Source: Candidatus Undinarchaeales archaeon (GTDB taxonomy: Archaea > SpSt-1190 > JASMDC01). Taken from it: a stretch of 13,832 nucleotides of DNA. Of the stretch, positions 2,068 to 13,832 are shown piece after piece. Position 1 is the stretch's first letter; each line of letters begins with the position of its first letter. Below the pieces are notes generated by a model. The model had not been told where the DNA came from. It saw only the letters and a program-made list of their open reading frames with translations, and made no database searches. The DNA is taken from the NCBI GenBank assembly GCA_030753015.1, contig JASMDC010000031.1:1-13832 (forward strand), in the 5' to 3' direction. Made by a program: the position numbers and the translations under genes.

Positions 2068-2799
2068 ATGCCGGGTTTCTTCATCTCGTTCGAGGGCGCG
2101 ACGGGTGTGGGGAAGACCACTATGGCGACCCGGCTTTGCGATACTCTCAAGGAGCGCGGCCACGACGTACTGGTGGTCCCCGAGTTCTCGGACTCGCTCA
2201 TCGGGCGCTCGATCCACGAGAGCCTAACACGCGACCCGTTCCTTCGGCTTCCGCCCCTGTCCGAGACCCTGCTGGTCACGGCCGACCGGGCGTTCTTCAC
2301 CGAGCGCGTGATCGTCCCCGCCCTTAAGCAGGGTAAGGTGGTGATCAAGGACAGGTACTACGACTCGACATACGTGTACCAGCCCTATAGGTTCGTGGAG
2401 GATGGATACCACACGAACAAGGAGCAGGTGTTCAAGTGGCTGGATGCGTTCCATGAATTCTTTGTCATCCGACCTAACATCACGTTCCTCCTGCAGGCCG
2501 GGCCCGAGGACGCCCTGAAGCGACAGGCCCTGAACAAGGGCTGGCGCATCACCAGCGAGGATGTGCGCATGGCCGAGGAGACGGCCAAGATCTACGAGGA
2601 CCTAGTCTCGCGGGATCCTGCACGGTTCATCCGCATAGATTCCTATGTGACCACGATCGACGCCGTGGCCGAGAAGGTGCTGCAAAAGACCTTGGACGTG
2701 ATGGGGAAGGACCACCACATCCACGCCCCTGACCTCTTCAAGGAGGATCTCTCCCAGAAGACGTTGGCCGACTTCGGGAACGGGAAGCCGCAGGTCTAA
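2068..2799 (+). CDS. tmk: Thymidylate kinase (dTMP kinase) family protein with C-terminal extension
   Basis: 243 aa. FISFEGATGVGKTT P-loop, SETLLVTADRA, VIVPALKQGKVVIKDRYYDSTYVYQ (DRY motif), PNITFLL, RFIRIDS. An ~30-aa tail follows the kinase fold. Confidence 0.85.
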   Translation: MPGFFISFEGATGVGKTTMATRLCDTLKERGHDVLVVPEFSDSLIGRSIHESLTRDPFLRLPPLSETLLVTADRAFFTERVIVPALKQGKVVIKDRYYDSTYVYQPYRFVEDGYHTNKEQVFKWLDAFHEFFVIRPNITFLLQAGPEDALKRQALNKGWRITSEDVRMAEETAKIYEDLVSRDPARFIRIDSYVTTIDAVAEKVLQKTLDVMGKDHHIHAPDLFKEDLSQKTLADFGNGKPQV

Positions 2800-5400: not shown

Positions 5401-7107
5401 ATGGCCATCGTCGTCTTCAGGCGCAGAGACGGACTCGCCCGTGAGTGCTCCCTCCGCATTACCAGCGGGGACCTGCGCACTCCTGTACTTCTCCCTACCG
5501 ATGGTGCTCTCGTCTCGCCTCGACCTGATGCCCGTATGCTCTCGCATGCATCGCCAGCGGAGGCCGGTGCCGCCCTGACCGACGTGCCTTCGTTCCGGTT
5601 CACGGCCCATTCGCCTGCTGCCATTGCCCGCCCCCTGGCCCAGCGCAACGCCGATCTCCTGGCAGCGGCCGACGGACCGACCTCACTGGGCCATCTCCAC
5701 CTCACACAGCACAATGACTTACTAGACCTCCAGCTGAATGCCCTGTACGACAGCGGCGTGCCTGTCGCCTGGATACGGAATCCCGACGAGCTGACCGGTG
5801 CCGATCTCATCCGGAAGCTTATGGTCGTGAAGGAATCGCTCCCCGATGTTATCCTCATCGCGTCCACCAAACGCTTCGAGCTCATCCCCTTCCTCGTGAT
5901 GTGCGGAGTGGACGTGTTCGATCCGGTACCATTGTCGCTCGAGCCCGCCCGGGGACGCATGCTCCACGACCTGGCACCACTGGCCGTGGACGAGCCTAAG
6001 GACAAGCTCCGGACCGACACAATGGCATCCATTTCCCGCACCCTTGATCTCCTGCGTGCCGCTGTCAGAGCGGGAACGGTTCGCGAGACCGTGGAGGGCT
6101 ACTGCGCCCGTGATGTTGAGGCCATGCGCACGCTCAGGCTCTGGGACCTGGCGGACACGTCACGGTTCGCTGACCGGGCCAAGGCCTCGCCCCAGCGGTT
6201 CGTGCTGGCAGCCTCCCTGGGCCGTCCCGAGGTCGTGCGCTGGGAGCGGGACATCCGCGAGCGCTACACACCACCATCACTTTCTGTGCTCCTGCTTCTC
6301 CCTTGCTCCTACACGAAGCCCTACTCCCGCTCGCGCACCCACCAGGCCGTCCGGGAGGCGATAGGGCGGCCGGGGAGCGTGCACGAGGTCATCGTGACCT
6401 CACCCCTGGGTGCGGTCCCCCGGGAGCTCGAAGGCGTGTACCCTGCGGCCCACTACGATATCCCGGTGACCGGTACCTGGAGCACCGAGGAGATCGACCG
6501 CTCTGCCTCCCTGGTCCAGAACATCATAGACAAGGGCGCCTACGAGCGCGTGATGGGCTATCTGCCCGGTTCGTACGGGCTGGTGGCAGCAGAACTTGCT
6601 GCTCGAGGTGTGGACGTCGACGTGGCGACCGAGCTGCAGGCCTTGGCCCGCCTCCTGCCAGAGGACGCGCACGACGAGCGCCGCGCTTGGGGGAAGGAGA
6701 TGTCGCATGCTGTACTGGACATACAGTTCGGGCCCGGGACATGGAGCGGGCTCGAGCCATTCCACTACCGCAAGGGCACCCTTCGCCATCAGGACACCCG
6801 TAAGCGCCTGGCGGCGATCGACCCGGACACAGGTCTTTGGGCGCTCAATATCGCAGGGGCCCGAGCCATGGGCGACAGCCCCACGCACAGGGTGGACATC
6901 GCTCCTTTCGAGTTCAAGGCCAGTATCTTCGCCCCCGGGGTGATGGCCGCTGCAGACGGTGTACAACGGGGAGACGATGTGATAGTGTTCCGTGAGGGGC
7001 AGCTCGCGGCCGTGGGTACCGCCGAGATGACAGGACCCGAGATGGTCCGCTCCCGGCGGGGGCTGGCCATCACCGTGCGTGAGCGCGCCGATGAGGGGGG
7101 TGAGTAG
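5401..7107 (+). CDS. arcS: Archaeosine synthase subunit alpha (ArcS/TgtA2)
   Basis: 568 aa. Degenerate TGT-like N-terminus (RDGLAR...LRTP, LVMCGVDVFD), ArcS signature LLPCSYTKPYSRSRTH...HEVIVTSPLGAVPRELEGVYPAAHYDIPVTGTW, and a C-terminal PUA domain (SIFAPGV...GDDVIV...AVGTAEMTGPEM). Confidence 0.92.
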   Translation: MAIVVFRRRDGLARECSLRITSGDLRTPVLLPTDGALVSPRPDARMLSHASPAEAGAALTDVPSFRFTAHSPAAIARPLAQRNADLLAAADGPTSLGHLHLTQHNDLLDLQLNALYDSGVPVAWIRNPDELTGADLIRKLMVVKESLPDVILIASTKRFELIPFLVMCGVDVFDPVPLSLEPARGRMLHDLAPLAVDEPKDKLRTDTMASISRTLDLLRAAVRAGTVRETVEGYCARDVEAMRTLRLWDLADTSRFADRAKASPQRFVLAASLGRPEVVRWERDIRERYTPPSLSVLLLLPCSYTKPYSRSRTHQAVREAIGRPGSVHEVIVTSPLGAVPRELEGVYPAAHYDIPVTGTWSTEEIDRSASLVQNIIDKGAYERVMGYLPGSYGLVAAELAARGVDVDVATELQALARLLPEDAHDERRAWGKEMSHAVLDIQFGPGTWSGLEPFHYRKGTLRHQDTRKRLAAIDPDTGLWALNIAGARAMGDSPTHRVDIAPFEFKASIFAPGVMAAADGVQRGDDVIVFREGQLAAVGTAEMTGPEMVRSRRGLAITVRERADEGGE

Positions 7108-7109
7108 GG

Positions 7110-8036
7110 ATGACGTACTGGTTCTTCGAGAACGACCGGGGGCCGGAGGGACTGCTACGTTACCTCACCCTCATTCTCACCACCCGTGGCTGTTCCTGGG
7201 CCCGCGGTAAGGGCCCTTGTTTGATGTGCGGCTACCAGGCCGACGCCGATCCCGCCATATCGCCCGAGGCGGTGGTGGCACAGGTGGCAGGTCTGAGCGG
7301 CCAGCTCTCCCAGGCGGAGGGCGTGAAGCTCTATACTTCGGGGAGCATCCTGGACGAAGACGAGCTCCCGACCGACCTACGACGTGAACTGCTAGCACGC
7401 CTGGCAGCGAGCCCGGCACGCGAGATCGTGCTGGAGACACGGGCAGACATGGTCACTCAAGAGGGAGTGGCCGAGGTGCTGGCCGCCCTGCCGGGCAAGC
7501 ACGTGGAGTTCGCCATGGGACTGGAGTCGTCCAACGACGAGGTGCTCGCTCACTGTGTGCATAAACCCACACGGTTCGTCGACGTGCGCCGGGCCGCCGA
7601 GGAGATACGTCTGGCGGGCGCGGGCGTCAAGCTATATCTCCTCTTAAAACCGCCCTTCCTCACAGAAGGAGAGGCCATCGACGACTGCCTTGCGTCATGT
7701 CGCGACGCTGCCAAGATCGCTGACACTGTGACGATCAACCTGCTCAACGTGCAGAAAAGGACTCTCGTAGAAAAACTGTGGGGACGGGACGAGTACCGAC
7801 CGCCGTGGCTGTGGTCCGCGGTGGAGGTGGCCCGTGAATGCCAGGACCTGCCCGTCCGCCTCCTTATGGGGCTGGCCGGGGCCGGCAGCCGGCGCGGCGC
7901 CTACAACTGTCGACGCTGTTCCAAGCACGTGACGCGTGCTTTGCGGCATGCTGCCCTGTCGGGCGACTACTCCCTGCCGGGCCTTGCCTGTGGGTGTGAG
8001 GATGAATGGAGGGTCTATCGTGAGCTTCGAGATTAA
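7110..8036 (+). CDS. raSEA: Archaeosine biosynthesis radical SAM enzyme RaSEA
   Basis: 308 aa. Non-canonical cluster motif ILTTRGCSWARGKGPCLMCGY (CX8CX2C), VKLYTSGSILD, ETR, MGLESSND, YLLLKPPFLTEGEAI, YRPPWLWS, and C-terminal GSRRGAYNCRRC...CGC. Lies between arcS and tgtA. Confidence 0.9.
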   Translation: MTYWFFENDRGPEGLLRYLTLILTTRGCSWARGKGPCLMCGYQADADPAISPEAVVAQVAGLSGQLSQAEGVKLYTSGSILDEDELPTDLRRELLARLAASPAREIVLETRADMVTQEGVAEVLAALPGKHVEFAMGLESSNDEVLAHCVHKPTRFVDVRRAAEEIRLAGAGVKLYLLLKPPFLTEGEAIDDCLASCRDAAKIADTVTINLLNVQKRTLVEKLWGRDEYRPPWLWSAVEVARECQDLPVRLLMGLAGAGSRRGAYNCRRCSKHVTRALRHAALSGDYSLPGLACGCEDEWRVYRELRD

Positions 8037-9975
8037 ACATAAGGACGCGCTAGGGCGTATCGGCGTGCTGAAGACCGCCAGCGGGAGCTTCGAGACGCCC
8101 ACTATAATGCCGGTGATGAATCCCAATCCCGAGAACCAGCCCATCTCCGGTCCGGACCTCTACCGGCTCGGGGCCCGGACCGTGATCACCAACGCCTATA
8201 TCATCCACTCGCACGAGGACCTCCGCGCCCGCGCCCTGGACGAGGGACTTCATAGTCTGATCCAGTTCCCAGGGCCCGTGGCCACCGACTCCGGCGGGTT
8301 CCAGATATACACCTACGGTAACGTTGACGTGGGGGCTGCTGAGATCGAAGCGTTCCAGGAGGACATCGGCTCCGATCTTGCGGTCATCCTCGACACACCA
8401 CCACCACTCGACCTTCCTAAGGCAAAGGTCCGTGCCGCGATCGATGTGACCCTGAAGCGTGCCCGTGAGAACGTGGAGCGCCGGCGAAAGGACGACGTGC
8501 TATGGTACGGTCCAGTGCACGGCCACATGTACCGGGACCTTGTGAAGCGCTCTGCTCGCGGTATCTGCGAGCTTGACTTTCCGGTGGTGGCCATAGGCTC
8601 CTCGGTCCAGATGCTCGTGCGGTACATGTTCGCTGCCCACGCACGCTCGATCGCGAACGTGCGCGAGCACTTGCCTGCCGATCGGCCCGTCCACCTGTTC
8701 GGTGCCGGCCACCCCATTTACATGGCGGCCGCGGTTATGCTGGGTGTGGACCTCTTTGACTCGGCCTTCTACGTGCTCGCCGCAAGGGACAACCGCTATA
8801 TTACCCTCTCGGGCACTCTCCGCCTCGATACGATGACCGAGTTCCCCTGCTCGTGCGAGGTGTGCAGTCGCACGACGCCCGCTGAGCTCATGAAGGCGGA
8901 CCGGGACGCACGAACCAAGGCCCTGGCCACGCACAACCTCATCGTCACTATGGAGGAGCTTGCCCGCATCCGCGAGGCCATCCGGTCGGGAACGCTCCTC
9001 GAGCTCGCCCTGCGACGGATGCGCTCACACCCCCGTATGACGGAGATCCTCGACGACTTCAAGCGGTACGGCCGGCTCATGGAGCCCTACGATCCCGTAT
9101 CGAAGCGGAGCGCTCTCCTCTACACGGGTCCTGAGGCGCGCTACCGGCCCGAGGTGGTCCGGTTCCAGCGCAGGCTCTACGATCGGTTCGACGGACCTGC
9201 ACGTGACGTGCTGGCCGTGATCCCTGATCCGGGGATGACGCCGTTCGCTTCGTCCGGGCTCCACGTACGTTCCCGTGCCTGGGTGCATACCGAGCACCCT
9301 GATGCCTCGGTCCAGTACTGCACGAGCTCTCACCTGTTCGGTGTGGTCCCCGAGCAGCTCGAGGAAGCGTACCCCGTGGCCCAATGCGTATATCCCTCTA
9401 ATGCCCGGGGACGCTCCGCCGAGGTGCGCAGGTTCATCGATGCCTTCGGTGAGCGCTACGGCACGGTCCTCGTCCTCACCGGGAAGGAACGAGTGTCAGG
9501 GAACGTGAAGGTCCCCCTCCCCGACCATGTGGAGACCGTGCGTGCACTCGCGGACCACCAGTTGTATCGGGGCGCCCGGGCACTGATACCCGATGGCTCA
9601 CGAGTGAAGCGATCCCGAAAGACCAAGCGTTTGCGTGCTGTGTACGGTCCCGATGGGGAGCTCATCGCAGCCCTCAGGGCGTCGGACCTCGCTCTTATCC
9701 CCAAGCTCTCAATCCTCGAGGCCATGCCCATAGGTGTAAAGACGGTCGTCGTCGATGACGATGCTACACCCTTCGTACGCGAGGGGCGGAGCGCGTTCTG
9801 CCGGTTCGTGGACAGTGCTGACCCGGGTATCGGAGCCAGGGACGAGGTGGCCGTGCGGGACCTGAAGGGAACACTCCTGGCCGAAGGCACTGCTCAGGTA
9901 TCGGGTCGTGAGATGATGGACCTGTCGGCCGGTGTCGCCGTCAAGGTGCGGGAGTCGATCAAGGGCGGGGAGTGA
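8020..9975 (+). CDS. tgtA: Archaeal tRNA-guanine(15) transglycosylase (ArcTGT), full-length with PUA domain
   Basis: Start reassigned to GTG 8020 (SD GGAGG at 8008-8012), giving MSFEIKHKDALGRIG and 651 aa. Contains ETPTIMPV, ITNAYII, TDSGGFQ, HLFGAGHP, GVDLFDSA, Zn site CSCEVC...HNL, and C-terminal C2 and PUA domains. Overlaps the end of raSEA by 17 nt. Confidence 0.96.
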   Translation: MSFEIKHKDALGRIGVLKTASGSFETPTIMPVMNPNPENQPISGPDLYRLGARTVITNAYIIHSHEDLRARALDEGLHSLIQFPGPVATDSGGFQIYTYGNVDVGAAEIEAFQEDIGSDLAVILDTPPPLDLPKAKVRAAIDVTLKRARENVERRRKDDVLWYGPVHGHMYRDLVKRSARGICELDFPVVAIGSSVQMLVRYMFAAHARSIANVREHLPADRPVHLFGAGHPIYMAAAVMLGVDLFDSAFYVLAARDNRYITLSGTLRLDTMTEFPCSCEVCSRTTPAELMKADRDARTKALATHNLIVTMEELARIREAIRSGTLLELALRRMRSHPRMTEILDDFKRYGRLMEPYDPVSKRSALLYTGPEARYRPEVVRFQRRLYDRFDGPARDVLAVIPDPGMTPFASSGLHVRSRAWVHTEHPDASVQYCTSSHLFGVVPEQLEEAYPVAQCVYPSNARGRSAEVRRFIDAFGERYGTVLVLTGKERVSGNVKVPLPDHVETVRALADHQLYRGARALIPDGSRVKRSRKTKRLRAVYGPDGELIAALRASDLALIPKLSILEAMPIGVKTVVVDDDATPFVREGRSAFCRFVDSADPGIGARDEVAVRDLKGTLLAEGTAQVSGREMMDLSAGVAVKVRESIKGGE

Positions 9976-9978
9976 GGC

Positions 9979-12900
9979 CTACCAGCCGCCCCCGCCGGAT
10001 CCGTCGTCCTCGCCACCTTCGGGAGCCTGCCAGCCGCCGCCCTCGGCACCACCTTCTTCGCCACCACCTTCTTCGCCACCAGGGGCCCATCCCTGCTGCT
10101 GCTGGTCGCCCCAGCCGCCACCTTCCGCTCCTTCGCCGCCCATACCGGGCATACCGCCTTCTGCTCCTTCGCCGCCCATACCGGGCATACCGCCTTCCAT
10201 GCCCTCGATGCCGCCACCCATCCCCTCCGTGACTGGCGCATCGCTCTCTTCCTCGCTGTCCTCGCCACCGACGTAGTCGGGAACCTCGGTGTCCTCGAGG
10301 TCCTCTGCAGAGGTGCCGCCGCCGCCCTGCAGGCCAGAGAGAACAGCGTACACACCTCCGCCCAGAATGGAGATGGACACCAGGCCCACCATGGCTATCA
10401 GGAGCCAGTTCGTCTCATCTTCTTCATCCGTGCCACTCATGTCGCCTGCGGCCTCTGCGGTCGGGGCTGCCACCTCTTTAGCGTCATACAGCACGTCCTT
10501 CGACTCCTTGACGTAGGAGTGCGCCACACCGTAGAGGTCCACAAAGAACACCTGGGTCCTTGACTCGGGGAAGTTGATGCGCTGTGTCATGCTGTCCTTG
10601 AGGCCCTTGTACGAGTAGGATCCGAGCTTCCTGAACGTTCGGAGGATTAGGGTGCCGTTTTCGTCGACGAGCTCCTCCGGTCCGGTGAAGTTCATGTCGC
10701 TCGGCGGGATGAACATGAACACAATCTTGGCGGTGAGGTTCGGTCGGAAGGCGCGCACGTTGTAGTTTAGGGTCTCGGAGATCTGGTTGTAGCGCTGCTC
10801 GACCTGGAACAAGGTAATGTCAGAACCGGGTAAGGCCAGGGGAACGTCGAGGGGGAAGGACTGGGCGACGTACTCGTATCCCAGCTCGTCAAAACAGTGG
10901 CTCGTGAGAGTTATGCGCAGGGGGGGTTCCGTCCCTGTGCGTTTGAGATGGAGTGGGACGCGCACGAGTTCCCCTGCGGGGATGGAACCGGTGTAGCCGC
11001 AAGCGGTACCGCATTCCAGCCCTTCTGAGAGGGTTAGGTTGAGCTCCAGGTCGAAGGCAGTGCCCTCACCGTGGTTGAACACAATGGCCTCGAGGTTCAC
11101 GTCCTCGGTTGAGTTGTAGTCGTTCTTGTCCAGCAGCCCTATGATCTCTATCTTGGGGAAGAGGCCGAAGTGGGCAGGGGCGGCGTAGAACACGTCGGTG
11201 TTATTGGCGAGGACCTCGTGGCTCTTGAGGTCCTGGTCATTGTAGGTCACCCTGGCCGGTGGGAGGTCGTAGCTCCCAAGAGCATAGGGCGTGAGCGTGA
11301 TGTTGACGCTCTTTGCCTCGCCCGCAAGGAGATCTCCGTTCCAGGTGTATTCTTCCCCCCATTTCTTACTCTCGAAGAAATCGTCACCCACAGCGGAGTA
11401 GATGGTGACGTTGTGGGCGTCGCCTTCGCCGATGTTCTCCACCATGAGAGTGAAGTTCATACCACCGAACATGGTTGTTGCGTTCGCCTTGTTATCCAGC
11501 ACCTTGAACTTTATCTCGTTGGATTGGAACTCCTGGTTGAGGCCGCCGATGTTGAGGAGAACGCGTGTGGGATCGATCGTGAAGTTTCCGGTCCGGATAG
11601 CTCGCATCTCGTAGATGTACTCGATGGTCCGGCCCTCCTTGATCTGGGGGATGTCCCTGAACCGGGCTGTATGGTCGAGGAACTCCAGGGTCTCGGACGT
11701 GGGCTCAACACAGGTGATGGCAATGTCCTCGTCGAGGTTGTTGGTGACGTGCACATAGGCACGGACGATGTCACCCACGGCAGGATTGAGGTCAGAGAGA
11801 GACTTGAGCACGATGACGTCAGGCGTTTCACCCATCTCCTTAACGATCTCCCGTCGGAGGAGGGCGACTTCGCCCTTAATGATGCGTGAGAACACTATCT
11901 GAGGGTCCTTCTCGGTGAGCACGACTTCCATATACTTGGCCGAGGCGTTCACGAGGAACTTGTTCTGGCTGGCATCGAAGTAGAGGGTGAGGAGGGGCGG
12001 GTAACTTGTTTCACCGCCGTCCTCGGGTGCCTGCATGTCATATGTGAAGTTGACGACGCCCTTTGCAGGAATGGTGCCTGAGAAACCCTTCTCTCCTTTG
12101 ACGAAGATGAAGCCGGGTGGGAGCACCTCGTTGAAAATGACATTGTACGCGGGAACGGAGCCGACGTTCATCACGTAGGCAGTTACGTTGACTACCTCGT
12201 CAATCATGGGGGTTGCGTCTGAGAACTCCCGCTCAACTACTACCTTGGGGCAACCGCAGTCCTCGCAGCAGTAGATCTTTCCGGGCGAGGGCGGCTGGCC
12301 GGGCACTTGCCGTTCCTCCAGCTCAGAGCAGATCCCGTCGCCGCAGAGGGGGCCGATGGGGAAAGATGGGAGCACCGCCGTGTGATGCCTCTTCTCGCTC
12401 ACATAGTCGCCCTCTTTAGTTATTAGGGACATGTCCATGGGTAATGATGCGTTAGCAAGAGCAGTAACGGTCAGAGTATCCGCTTTCAACAGCCCGATGC
12501 GGTTGTTACCTTCCTGCGACCGGTCGAGAATGGTATGGTCCCCGCAGAACATAAGACCGCTGATAGTTAGGTCGTTGGGGCAAATCGTCTTCAATCCTAT
12601 ATCATACAGCATAGACTGGTTAGTGATCTTGAGATTGTATCGATCGCTGTCCTTGCTACGGAATTCCATCCATCGAATAGGGATGCTAGAAATGATGCCC
12701 GGATCCTCAGGCACATCAGTACTAACGCCCGTGCTACGGAAGAACGTCTCAAGAGAATCTATTGCTTCAATAAGATTCCGAAGGGATAGGATTGATATGT
12801 ACCCTTTATTATAAACATATACACTCCCGTTCGAGAATGCCTGATAATAGAAGCCATGATCTCTCCAGCGAACTGAACGGTCACTCTCAAGCCCGAGGAT

Positions 12901-13832
12901 ATCCCGTTTCTTCACCTCCTCGGTTAATGTAGCAAAATTCATTTTGGGGAATGTCACTTCAAGTCCAAGATACTCCTTTGGGGGTAGCGAGATCTCACTG
13001 AAAATACGATGTAGCTTGACATCCCCTTCGGAACCAGTAATCACTGGAGGAACATCATTCTTGCATAATACGAGAAGCTCTGTCTTTTTTTCATAATCTG
13101 TCGAGAGGTCGATTTTCATCGACAGTATCTCTTCCTGATTTTGAAAATGGGATGTTTCGATGATATAATTAGTGAGGTTGAAATAGCTGTCAACAGGTGT
13201 TGGGAAGGTAGTATTGAGATTCTTGAATCCGGATCCCCCCGTGTTTCCGAGAAGTTCAAGTATCCCGCAACGGATGAATTCCATGGAGAAAGACTCAGGA
13301 TCAGTTAATTCGATTTCGTAGAAGGTCGAATCGGATCCGGATATTTTTGCTAGGTTGTGTATGACCGTCTCATGAATAGGGGAAATTTGGTAAATATCGT
13401 GTAGGTGCTCCTCGAGCTTGTCGAGCAGCAATTTATAGCTAATGGCAGAAGATGTGAAATTGAAGTCCGACACACGGCGAGTACCATAATGAGTATCATT
13501 CGCGTTACTAAAAGAAGTATTTACTAGGTCGATGCGTATCCTGCCGTCCAGGTGATCCTCAAACAAGAAATCCCCCTGGATAGAACGCTGGCGCCAGACA
13601 AGCTTCTTCTCATCTCGTTCGAGAATGTCATTACTCGTTCTAAATTCATCTTCGAGGGCCTGAAGATCAAGATTCGTATCCGTGTAGGCGTGTATTGTAT
13701 AGTTTGAATCCGTCGCGTTCAATGAGCGAAGGTAGACCTTTACGACGGTCTCGCCATAACGAGGCTCGTCAATACAAGTCTTTTTTTCATCCTTTTCTTC
13801 ACATGTCTGGAATTTTGTGGATTGGACATCTG
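9979..13832 (-). CDS. Large membrane-anchored cell-surface glycoprotein with DUF11/BatD-like Ig repeats (5'-partial, >1280 aa)
   Basis: The frame stays open from TTG 13722 to the window edge (…DVQSTKFQTCEEKDEKKTCIDEPRYGETVVKVYLRSL…), so the true start lies outside. It has many N-x-S/T sequons, a CGDGIC...CCEDCGC motif, about four Ig-like repeats (V-x-N-x-G...P...G-x-I/L-x-A-G/K), a TM helix at 10339-10407 and an acidic tail. Confidence 0.85.
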   Translation of the reverse strand, partial: DVQSTKFQTCEEKDEKKTCIDEPRYGETVVKVYLRSLNATDSNYTIHAYTDTNLDLQALEDEFRTSNDILERDEKKLVWRQRSIQGDFLFEDHLDGRIRIDLVNTSFSNANDTHYGTRRVSDFNFTSSAISYKLLLDKLEEHLHDIYQISPIHETVIHNLAKISGSDSTFYEIELTDPESFSMEFIRCGILELLGNTGGSGFKNLNTTFPTPVDSYFNLTNYIIETSHFQNQEEILSMKIDLSTDYEKKTELLVLCKNDVPPVITGSEGDVKLHRIFSEISLPPKEYLGLEVTFPKMNFATLTEEVKKRDILGLESDRSVRWRDHGFYYQAFSNGSVYVYNKGYISILSLRNLIEAIDSLETFFRSTGVSTDVPEDPGIISSIPIRWMEFRSKDSDRYNLKITNQSMLYDIGLKTICPNDLTISGLMFCGDHTILDRSQEGNNRIGLLKADTLTVTALANASLPMDMSLITKEGDYVSEKRHHTAVLPSFPIGPLCGDGICSELEERQVPGQPPSPGKIYCCEDCGCPKVVVEREFSDATPMIDEVVNVTAYVMNVGSVPAYNVIFNEVLPPGFIFVKGEKGFSGTIPAKGVVNFTYDMQAPEDGGETSYPPLLTLYFDASQNKFLVNASAKYMEVVLTEKDPQIVFSRIIKGEVALLRREIVKEMGETPDVIVLKSLSDLNPAVGDIVRAYVHVTNNLDEDIAITCVEPTSETLEFLDHTARFRDIPQIKEGRTIEYIYEMRAIRTGNFTIDPTRVLLNIGGLNQEFQSNEIKFKVLDNKANATTMFGGMNFTLMVENIGEGDAHNVTIYSAVGDDFFESKKWGEEYTWNGDLLAGEAKSVNITLTPYALGSYDLPPARVTYNDQDLKSHEVLANNTDVFYAAPAHFGLFPKIEIIGLLDKNDYNSTEDVNLEAIVFNHGEGTAFDLELNLTLSEGLECGTACGYTGSIPAGELVRVPLHLKRTGTEPPLRITLTSHCFDELGYEYVAQSFPLDVPLALPGSDITLFQVEQRYNQISETLNYNVRAFRPNLTAKIVFMFIPPSDMNFTGPEELVDENGTLILRTFRKLGSYSYKGLKDSMTQRINFPESRTQVFFVDLYGVAHSYVKESKDVLYDAKEVAAPTAEAAGDMSGTDEEDETNWLLIAMVGLVSISILGGGVYAVLSGLQGGGGTSAEDLEDTEVPDYVGGEDSEEESDAPVTEGMGGGIEGMEGGMPGMGGEGAEGGMPGMGGEGAEGGGWGDQQQQGWAPGGEEGGGEEGGAEGGGWQAPEGGEDDGSGGGGW
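10047..10081. repeat. 15-bp tandem repeat (2.3 copies) encoding GEEGG
   Basis: caccaccttcttcgc twice, plus cacca; exact copies. Confidence 0.85.
10121..10198. repeat. 36-bp tandem repeat (2 copies plus partial) encoding GMPGMGGEGAEG
   Basis: 10121-10156 and 10157-10192 differ at one base (10126 c vs 10162 t), followed by ccttcc. Confidence 0.9.

Follow-up and report, generated by a model that had tools for sequence, protein, structure and literature searches.

Why should a thymidylate kinase end in a peptide that resembles a ligand of the sliding clamp? The question is raised by a 243-residue open reading frame (ORF) in a 13,832-nucleotide stretch of DNA from a Candidatus Undinarchaeales archaeon. 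This stretch, the window below, is the whole of one contig (C42; JASMDC010000031.1) of a 3.85 Mb genome assembly (G000) with 117 contigs and a GC content of 60%. A sequence-only reading had proposed that the encoded kinase carries, in an added C-terminal tail, a PCNA-interacting peptide (PIP) box, QKTLADF, through which it might be tethered to the clamp and supply thymidine di- and triphosphate (dTDP and dTTP) on the spot. We report that conservation among orthologues and a model of the complex both support the PCNA-binding interpretation of this motif, and that comparable tails end many canonical thymidylate (dTMP) kinases of a second archaeal order.

The kinase paralogue and its C-terminal tail

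The protein belongs to the dTMP kinase family. Residues 8-195 match PF02223 (Thymidylate_kin; E = 1.6e-28, 100.1 bits against a cut-off of 27), residues 3-202 match the NCBIfam equivalog TIGR00041 (dTMP kinase; 100.7 bits against a cut-off of 83.25), and the closest solved relative is the thymidylate kinase 5x8k (E = 8.6e-21 over residues 1-194). The P-loop GATGVGKT (residues 10-17), the DRY motif (residues 95-97), the LID arginine and the base-contacting glutamine (Q105) are all present, and every residue found to be near-invariant in a 63-sequence Tmk alignment is kept (E9, G10, G15, K16, E39, D95, R96, Q105, R152 and R186). Judged by these residues the kinase looks catalytically intact, and dTMP is its presumed substrate.

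A protein query found three Tmk-like genes in the genome, and the PF02223 profile gives four matches. The canonical Tmk is encoded on a different contig (213 aa; G000:C29:120769-121410, that is L041:170-811, minus strand) and reaches 160.4 bits with TIGR00041. The two proteins have in common the fold, the P-loop, the DRY motif, the LID arginine and Q105; the window kinase differs in its much lower TIGR00041 score, in a VPEFSD segment, in an insertion after YQ and in its 31-residue tail. On this comparison the window gene is a divergent second dTMP kinase paralogue and not the housekeeping Tmk, so that the earlier assignment to the thymidylate kinases held for the family and not for the housekeeping copy.

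The tail begins after the last kinase helix, which spans residues 197-212 in an AlphaFold 2 (AF2) model of the monomer, and positions 2701-2799 cover residues 212-243 and the stop codon. The extension of about 30 residues that had been proposed is thus real, at 31 residues, and its end reads ...HAPDLFKEDLSQKTLADFGNGKPQV. The position given for QKTLADF, 2755-2775, was exact: Q230 begins at nucleotide 2755 and F236 finishes at nucleotide 2775. The AF2 model was built on the 63-sequence alignment and has a mean predicted local distance difference test (pLDDT) of 89 and a predicted template-modelling score of 0.85. Along the tail the pLDDT by block is 90 (residues 211-220), 70 (221-230), 53 (231-240) and below 50 (239-243), with a one-turn helix at residues 233-236. 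Residues 213 to about 225, including a conserved P-D-L-F patch, are packed on the kinase fold, and the motif lies in the flexible terminal segment, seven residues from the C-terminus. Packing of the tail on the fold, which the sequence-only reading had named as grounds for abandoning its proposal, is therefore predicted for the proximal stretch, while the segment that bears the motif is free.

Within its clade the kinase is represented by five distinct sequences: the window copy, G001 and L044 (both 96% identical to it), P0003 (63%) and P0004 (57%). The motif is retained in all four of the others as QKTL-x-[DE]-[FY], position 235 being D or E and position 236 F or Y (Y in P0004), and the only invariant columns beyond residue 190 are P221, L228, Q230, K231, T232 and L233. 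Identity to P0003 and P0004 amounts to 132/190 and 126/190 over the kinase part, falls to 10/39 and 5/39 across residues 191-229, is 6/7 and 4/7 within the motif and drops again to 2/7 and 0/7 past it. A motif conserved in every orthologue while the remaining tail drifts is what had been anticipated from the single sequence, and it is what the clade displays. Codon changes agree with this pattern: the window gene and its G001 counterpart differ by 61 synonymous and 10 non-synonymous codons overall, and over residues 214-242 by nine synonymous codons, three of them within the motif, and no non-synonymous one. The tail is therefore translated and under purifying selection.

Two further genes of the same genome bear on the motif. 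A sister paralogue of 236 aa (G000:C49:16928-17638, that is L040:29-739, minus strand) has lost both the P-loop and the DRY motif and matches no NCBIfam model; it ends ...GMRTLDQFDEG, which aligns with the tail of the window kinase. As far as this alignment tells, the PIP-like motif is one that has outlived the loss of catalysis in this paralogue. A search with it found a sole relative, 92% identical. The paralogue has RPA-like and RadA genes at a distance of about 1.6-2.8 kb. The canonical Tmk, for its part, ends ..SVQTDIARFVDEE, a short tail with Q-x-x-I-x-x-F; G001 has the identical tail, and the two Tmk loci of the same class that were read (L026 and L028) do not conserve it.

Modelled docking on PCNA and comparison with known clients

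The host genome is archaeal, with a single PCNA of 249 aa, encoded on contig C73, as well as PolD, PolB, Fen1 and Nre. We modelled this PCNA (48-row alignment) with residues 200-243 of the kinase (4-row alignment). The complex scored 0.67 (runs of 0.59, 0.67 and 0.70), against 0.00 for the best of three controls, and so passes a score mark that 116 of 157 solved complexes and 2 of 215 mismatched pairs attain, counts that apply approximately here, own alignments having been used. The runs share at least 77% of their contacts, and the pLDDT of the partner is at least 52. In the modelled interface, tail residues 227-237 meet PCNA residues 41, 44-48, 125-127, 153, 197, 199, 224-225, 241 and 243-248, which we take to be the hydrophobic pocket, the interdomain connector loop (IDCL) and the C-terminal strand contacted by solved PIP peptides. 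Modelling with the organism's own PCNA, which had been suggested as a check, thus places the motif in the canonical PIP pocket, a result that supports binding and stops short of demonstrating it.

Positions 1, 4 and 7 of the PIP consensus are satisfied by Q230, L233 and F236. To see how common such ends are, we used a codon-usage-filtered set of 3116 proteins of G000 and sought the motif in their last 20 residues, with three internal 20-residue segments as controls. Of the 12 proteins found to have a C-terminal Q..L..[FYW], seven come from families of known PCNA clients: Fen1 (QGKLDQWF), two Nre proteins (QRRLTSFF and QKRLTDY), PolB (QSTLFGY), PolD DP2 (QVGLDTFL) and two RNase HII proteins (QRSLDDF and QASLSRW). 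To judge from these ends, a single-aromatic Q-x-x-L-x-[DS]-[FY] tail is in use in this genome, and the single-aromatic form has been described for A. fulgidus RNase HII in an excerpt of PMC3504372. The genome carries two RNase HII genes (L038, G000:C95:124890-126011, minus strand; L050, G000:C23:41702-42346, plus strand); the standard protein, of 214 aa, has the QRSLDDF end, and the longer one, of 373 aa, has an N-terminal extension of about 155 residues and ends ..QASLSRWS.

With these archaeal C-terminal PIP clients the window kinase shares the glutamine, an aliphatic residue at +3, an aromatic residue at +6, a flexible C-terminal tail and a modelled place in the pocket flanked by the IDCL and the C-terminus of PCNA. 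Unlike them it is an enzyme of nucleotide metabolism that does not act on DNA, its motif is followed by seven more residues, and the second aromatic residue is missing.

We consider it likely that the tail motif docks on PCNA, in view of its conservation and the modelled complex. A single-aromatic PIP box, QKTLADF, would then end the flexible tail of a divergent second dTMP kinase paralogue, and would most likely dock in the hydrophobic pocket, the IDCL and the C-terminal strand of the archaeon's single homotrimeric PCNA, in the manner of the PIP boxes that Fen1, RNase HII, Nre, PolB and PolD of the same genome bear at their C-termini. The kinase, normally a dimer, would be tethered to clamps loaded on DNA, and this tethering could increase the local level of dTDP, and subsequently of dTTP, at sites of replication or repair synthesis, for example keeping dUTP out. 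That local supply of dTDP and dTTP is the purpose of the docking is a tentative suggestion, and on balance a doubtful one.

PIP-like tails on other archaeal kinases and alternative explanations

We surveyed Tmk C-termini at 102 archaeal loci, 28 of them found by protein query and 74 with an open frame of at least 212 aa; the latter come from 150 listed PF02223 matches, with 331 further matches outside the survey. A regular expression matched 10 of the 102 loci, of which seven are real PIP-ended tails and three lie within the last kinase helix and are chance matches. Variant tails missed by the expression occur at five more loci: three are aliphatic variants and two, in genus f11, lack the glutamine. 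A single order, that of genome G355, accounts for all seven real tails and all three aliphatic variants. The two f11 kinases (L016 and L019, from G046 and G023) end ..KGKTIGKRLDEYL.. (..IGKRLDEYL..), a PIP-like tail whose conservation is uninformative since the two genomes are congeneric.

A dedicated search of the G355 order covered 35 genomes and 30 Tmk loci, 29 of them with a complete C-terminus (L140-L161). In 14 of the 29 canonical Tmks a basic linker leads, at the extreme C-terminus, to a strict Q..[LI]..[FYW] motif such as QKDLEEYF, QKDIEAYF, QKALGEYF, QRALEDFT or QVGLNGYL (for example at L141:1489-2139:+ and L147:1486-2139:+). Another three have aliphatic variants (QTRLEDLL, QTKLEELI), two have extensions lacking the glutamine (..AELTDFFKN and ..DKDLRYFL), and ten are tail-less. 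Tails occur in five of the eight families with a complete Tmk: f101 (3/3), f84 (5/6, the two glutamine-less extensions counted), f40 (8/11), f140 (2/2) and f119 (1/1), with none in f29 (0/2), f57 (0/3) or f74 (0/1). Fen1 of the same order ends QSSLDGWF or QRSLDSWFK. The sequence-only reading knew of no such tail as a standard Tmk feature; in this order 19 of 29 carry a PIP-like tail, and the window kinase is not unique. Because the linkers are unrelated to the window tail and its nearest non-orthologous relatives are tail-less, the window tail and those of the G355 order look independently acquired.

Several observations weigh against a PCNA-binding role for the window tail. The second aromatic residue of a canonical PIP box, at position 8, is replaced by G237 in the window kinase and by V in P0003 and P0004; single-aromatic archaeal PIPs exist, and we therefore file the motif as a single-aromatic variant and not as a canonical box. 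Given any PIP-like peptide, the complex model is able to dock it by remembering solved complexes; as many PCNA-PIP complexes have been solved, the docking pass may have this origin and speaks for likeness only. The bare motif is weakly above chance and near background, with Q..L..[FYW] in 12 of 3116 C-termini against 5, 7 and 9 of 3116 in the control segments. Outside the client families five matches are left (a DUF72 protein, a DUF4350 protein, a transposase, a 97-aa ORF and this Tmk), a number for which chance suffices, and the bare motif therefore proves nothing; QKTLADF stands above chance because it is conserved in orthologues. That conservation rests on two informative orthologues, P0003 and P0004, since the clade is tiny: a HMMER search of 1.84 billion representatives gave one match below 1e-30 (P0003) with the next at 2.5e-26, and scans of metagenome and genome contigs for further orthologues returned only 96% copies. 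The tail was found in none of 266 other Tmk-family proteins from database searches, and among the 102 loci in the G355 order (10 loci) and genus f11 (2 loci) only. As to the kinase itself, VPEFSD stands in place of the usual TREPGG, which leaves its dTMP specificity uncertain. Finally, no replication or repair gene lies within the window, so that the gene neighbourhood says nothing on the matter.

Two variants of the motif count were set aside. The loose motif Q..[LIVM]..[FYW] occurs in 26 of 3116 C-termini against 13-17 in the controls, and its annotated non-leucine matches, among them SecY, adenine deaminase, a CDP-alcohol transferase and a PIN protein, are clearly due to chance. In an ORF set in which the longest frame wins (3275 ORFs, 31 loose matches) the canonical Tmk was displaced by a shadow ORF, and the codon-usage-scored set was used instead.

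Conservation says that the motif is functional, not which partner it binds, and the tail might dock on another or an additional member of the replisome, such as primase or RPA. PIP-like peptides can be dual-specific: according to an excerpt of bioRxiv 10.1101/2020.01.29.925263, the C-terminal PIP of Pyrococcus abyssi PolD DP2 binds both PCNA and primase. The position of the degenerate paralogue, with RPA-like and RadA genes some 1.6 kb off, would also suit such a partner. We nevertheless regard this explanation as unlikely, since the glutamine, leucine and aromatic residue stand at PIP spacing, as in the Fen1, RNase HII and Nre tails of this genome, and the complex model falls in the canonical PIP pocket with all controls at 0.00, PCNA being the sole partner modelled.

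A second alternative, which we hold to be quite improbable, gives the tail a role as an intramolecular or dimer-interface element, for instance a lid or a regulatory arm that covers the active site; its conservation would follow from that role, and its likeness to a PIP box would be coincidental. Residues 213 to about 225 are indeed packed on the fold (pLDDT 70-90) and include the conserved P221-[DE]-[LI]-[FW], the frequency of the bare motif is near chance, and the AF2 model covers the monomer. The motif segment, however, has a pLDDT of 53 and below, and the dead paralogue keeps the motif with no active site left to regulate; moreover, unrelated linkers in the G355 order end in a like motif, which a portable docking peptide fits better. 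A functionless tail, with a chance motif in a recently added and neutrally evolving extension, was already disfavoured and is very improbable: the strict motif does turn up in 5-9 of 3116 proteins in arbitrary 20-residue segments and the loose matches include some that are surely chance, but neutrality is contradicted by the codon changes within the genus over residues 214-242 (nine synonymous, none non-synonymous) and by a QKTL that is invariant at 57-63% overall identity while its flanks drop to 13-26%.

Genomic setting, precedents and significance

The features of the kinase gene and of the larger neighbouring loci are collected in Table 1.

Table 1. Features of the window, with positions counted from its first nucleotide
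Feature	Position	Strand	Basis or remark
Whole ORF, dTMP-kinase-family protein with C-terminal tail	2068..2799	+	243 aa; stop codon 2797-2799; PF02223 and TIGR00041
Kinase fold, residues 1-212	2068..2703	+	63-sequence alignment, AF2 model, 5x8k match
Linker, residues 213-229	2704..2754	+	Patch P221-[DE]-[LI]-[FW] (nt 2728-2739) and invariant L228
PIP-box-like motif Q230-K-T-L-A-D-F236, single-aromatic variant	2755..2775	+	Conservation, codon changes, complex model
Last 7 residues GNGKPQV, variable, predicted disordered	2776..2796	+	Low identity to P0003 and P0004 (see text); low pLDDT
Three consecutive genes: DUF5591+PUA (ArcS-like), radical-SAM, TGT+PUA (ArcTGT-like)	5401-9975	+	
1247-aa ORF with DUF11, BatD and TRAP-beta-like repeats	9979-13722	-	Reaches contig end if read from upstream start

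Besides the kinase, the window encodes ArgRS, a weak SepF-like ORF, a prepilin peptidase, ArcS-like, radical-SAM and ArcTGT proteins and a giant DUF11 protein. The ArcS-like, radical-SAM and ArcTGT-like genes presumably form an archaeosine tRNA-modification cluster, in which the gene start at 7936 overlaps the ORF before it by about 100 nt, and the 1247-aa ORF is probably a large surface protein. A defence or viral origin of the kinase was considered and rejected: PADLOC gave weak Tmk-like matches only (best 2.1e-08) and PHROGs returned 'thymidylate kinase' only, and the housekeeping neighbours argue against a provirus. The genomes G000 and G001 measure 3.6-3.8 Mb with about 5% contamination, and the 15 genomes of the same class that were compared are all of 0.6-1.2 Mb; the two are either unusually large for their group or are misplaced or mixed bins.

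Other proteins of G000 end in PIP-like peptides. A DUF72 protein of 307 aa (L032, G000:C25:21763-22686, minus strand) ends ..KGQKTLTSFTCK, with a motif nearly that of the window Tmk, and on the strength of this end it is a candidate unrecognised PCNA client. A 97-aa ORF without a Pfam family (L051, G000:C33:841-1134, minus strand) has a very PIP-like end, ..KKGQTGLNQWF, and a 168-aa ORF, also without a Pfam family (L042, G000:C27:52258-52764, plus strand), has QRRMNQFF eleven residues before its end.

Physical coupling of dNTP-synthesising (deoxynucleoside triphosphate-synthesising) enzymes to the replisome is the concept behind the dNTP synthetase complex of phage T4 and the 'replitase' idea; the phage assembly is a multi-enzyme complex with, to our knowledge, no clamp-binding peptide on its kinase. 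The nearest precedent for the window protein is human TMPK, likewise a thymidylate kinase brought to sites of DNA synthesis: in an excerpt of PMC11381932, citing Hu et al. 2012, it is recruited, through TIP60, to sites of DNA damage and is said to raise the dTTP/dUTP ratio. As portrayed there, the human case differs in its TIP60 route, in its dependence on ATM, in being eukaryotic and in making no use of a PIP box on the kinase. The S. pombe ribonucleotide-reductase inhibitor Spd1 is similar in that it is a protein of dNTP supply with disordered PCNA-binding motifs (excerpt of PMC10939359); it differs in being an inhibitor degraded on PCNA, not an enzyme, and in that its motifs are highly divergent. 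Full-text literature searches, with supplements outside their scope, turned up no publication that connects a thymidylate kinase with PCNA or with a PIP box. What appears to be new, from the protein ends described here, is a putative PIP-box client that is a nucleotide kinase, and the presence of PIP-like tails on canonical Tmks of the G355 order.

It is possible, if somewhat short of an even chance, that archaea have repeatedly and independently given their dTMP kinases clamp-docking tails: the window paralogue, perhaps the dead and the canonical copies of the same genome, and the canonical Tmks of five families in the G355 order. Coupling of dTTP synthesis to PCNA-loaded DNA would then be a general and unrecognised feature of archaeal replication and repair, and a dead PIP-tailed paralogue could serve as a non-enzymatic adaptor or as a heterodimer partner. 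The recurrence of the motif on unrelated linkers in a second order provides a set of natural variants, and the same approach points to further candidates for unrecognised PCNA clients in G000, namely the DUF72 protein and the two small ORFs. Local dNTP supply at the fork or at the repair patch has long been debated and, according to the excerpt of PMC11381932, has been documented for thymidylate kinase so far only in human cells, via TIP60. PCNA clients almost all act on DNA, and a nucleotide kinase tethered to the clamp would be direct molecular evidence for such local supply.
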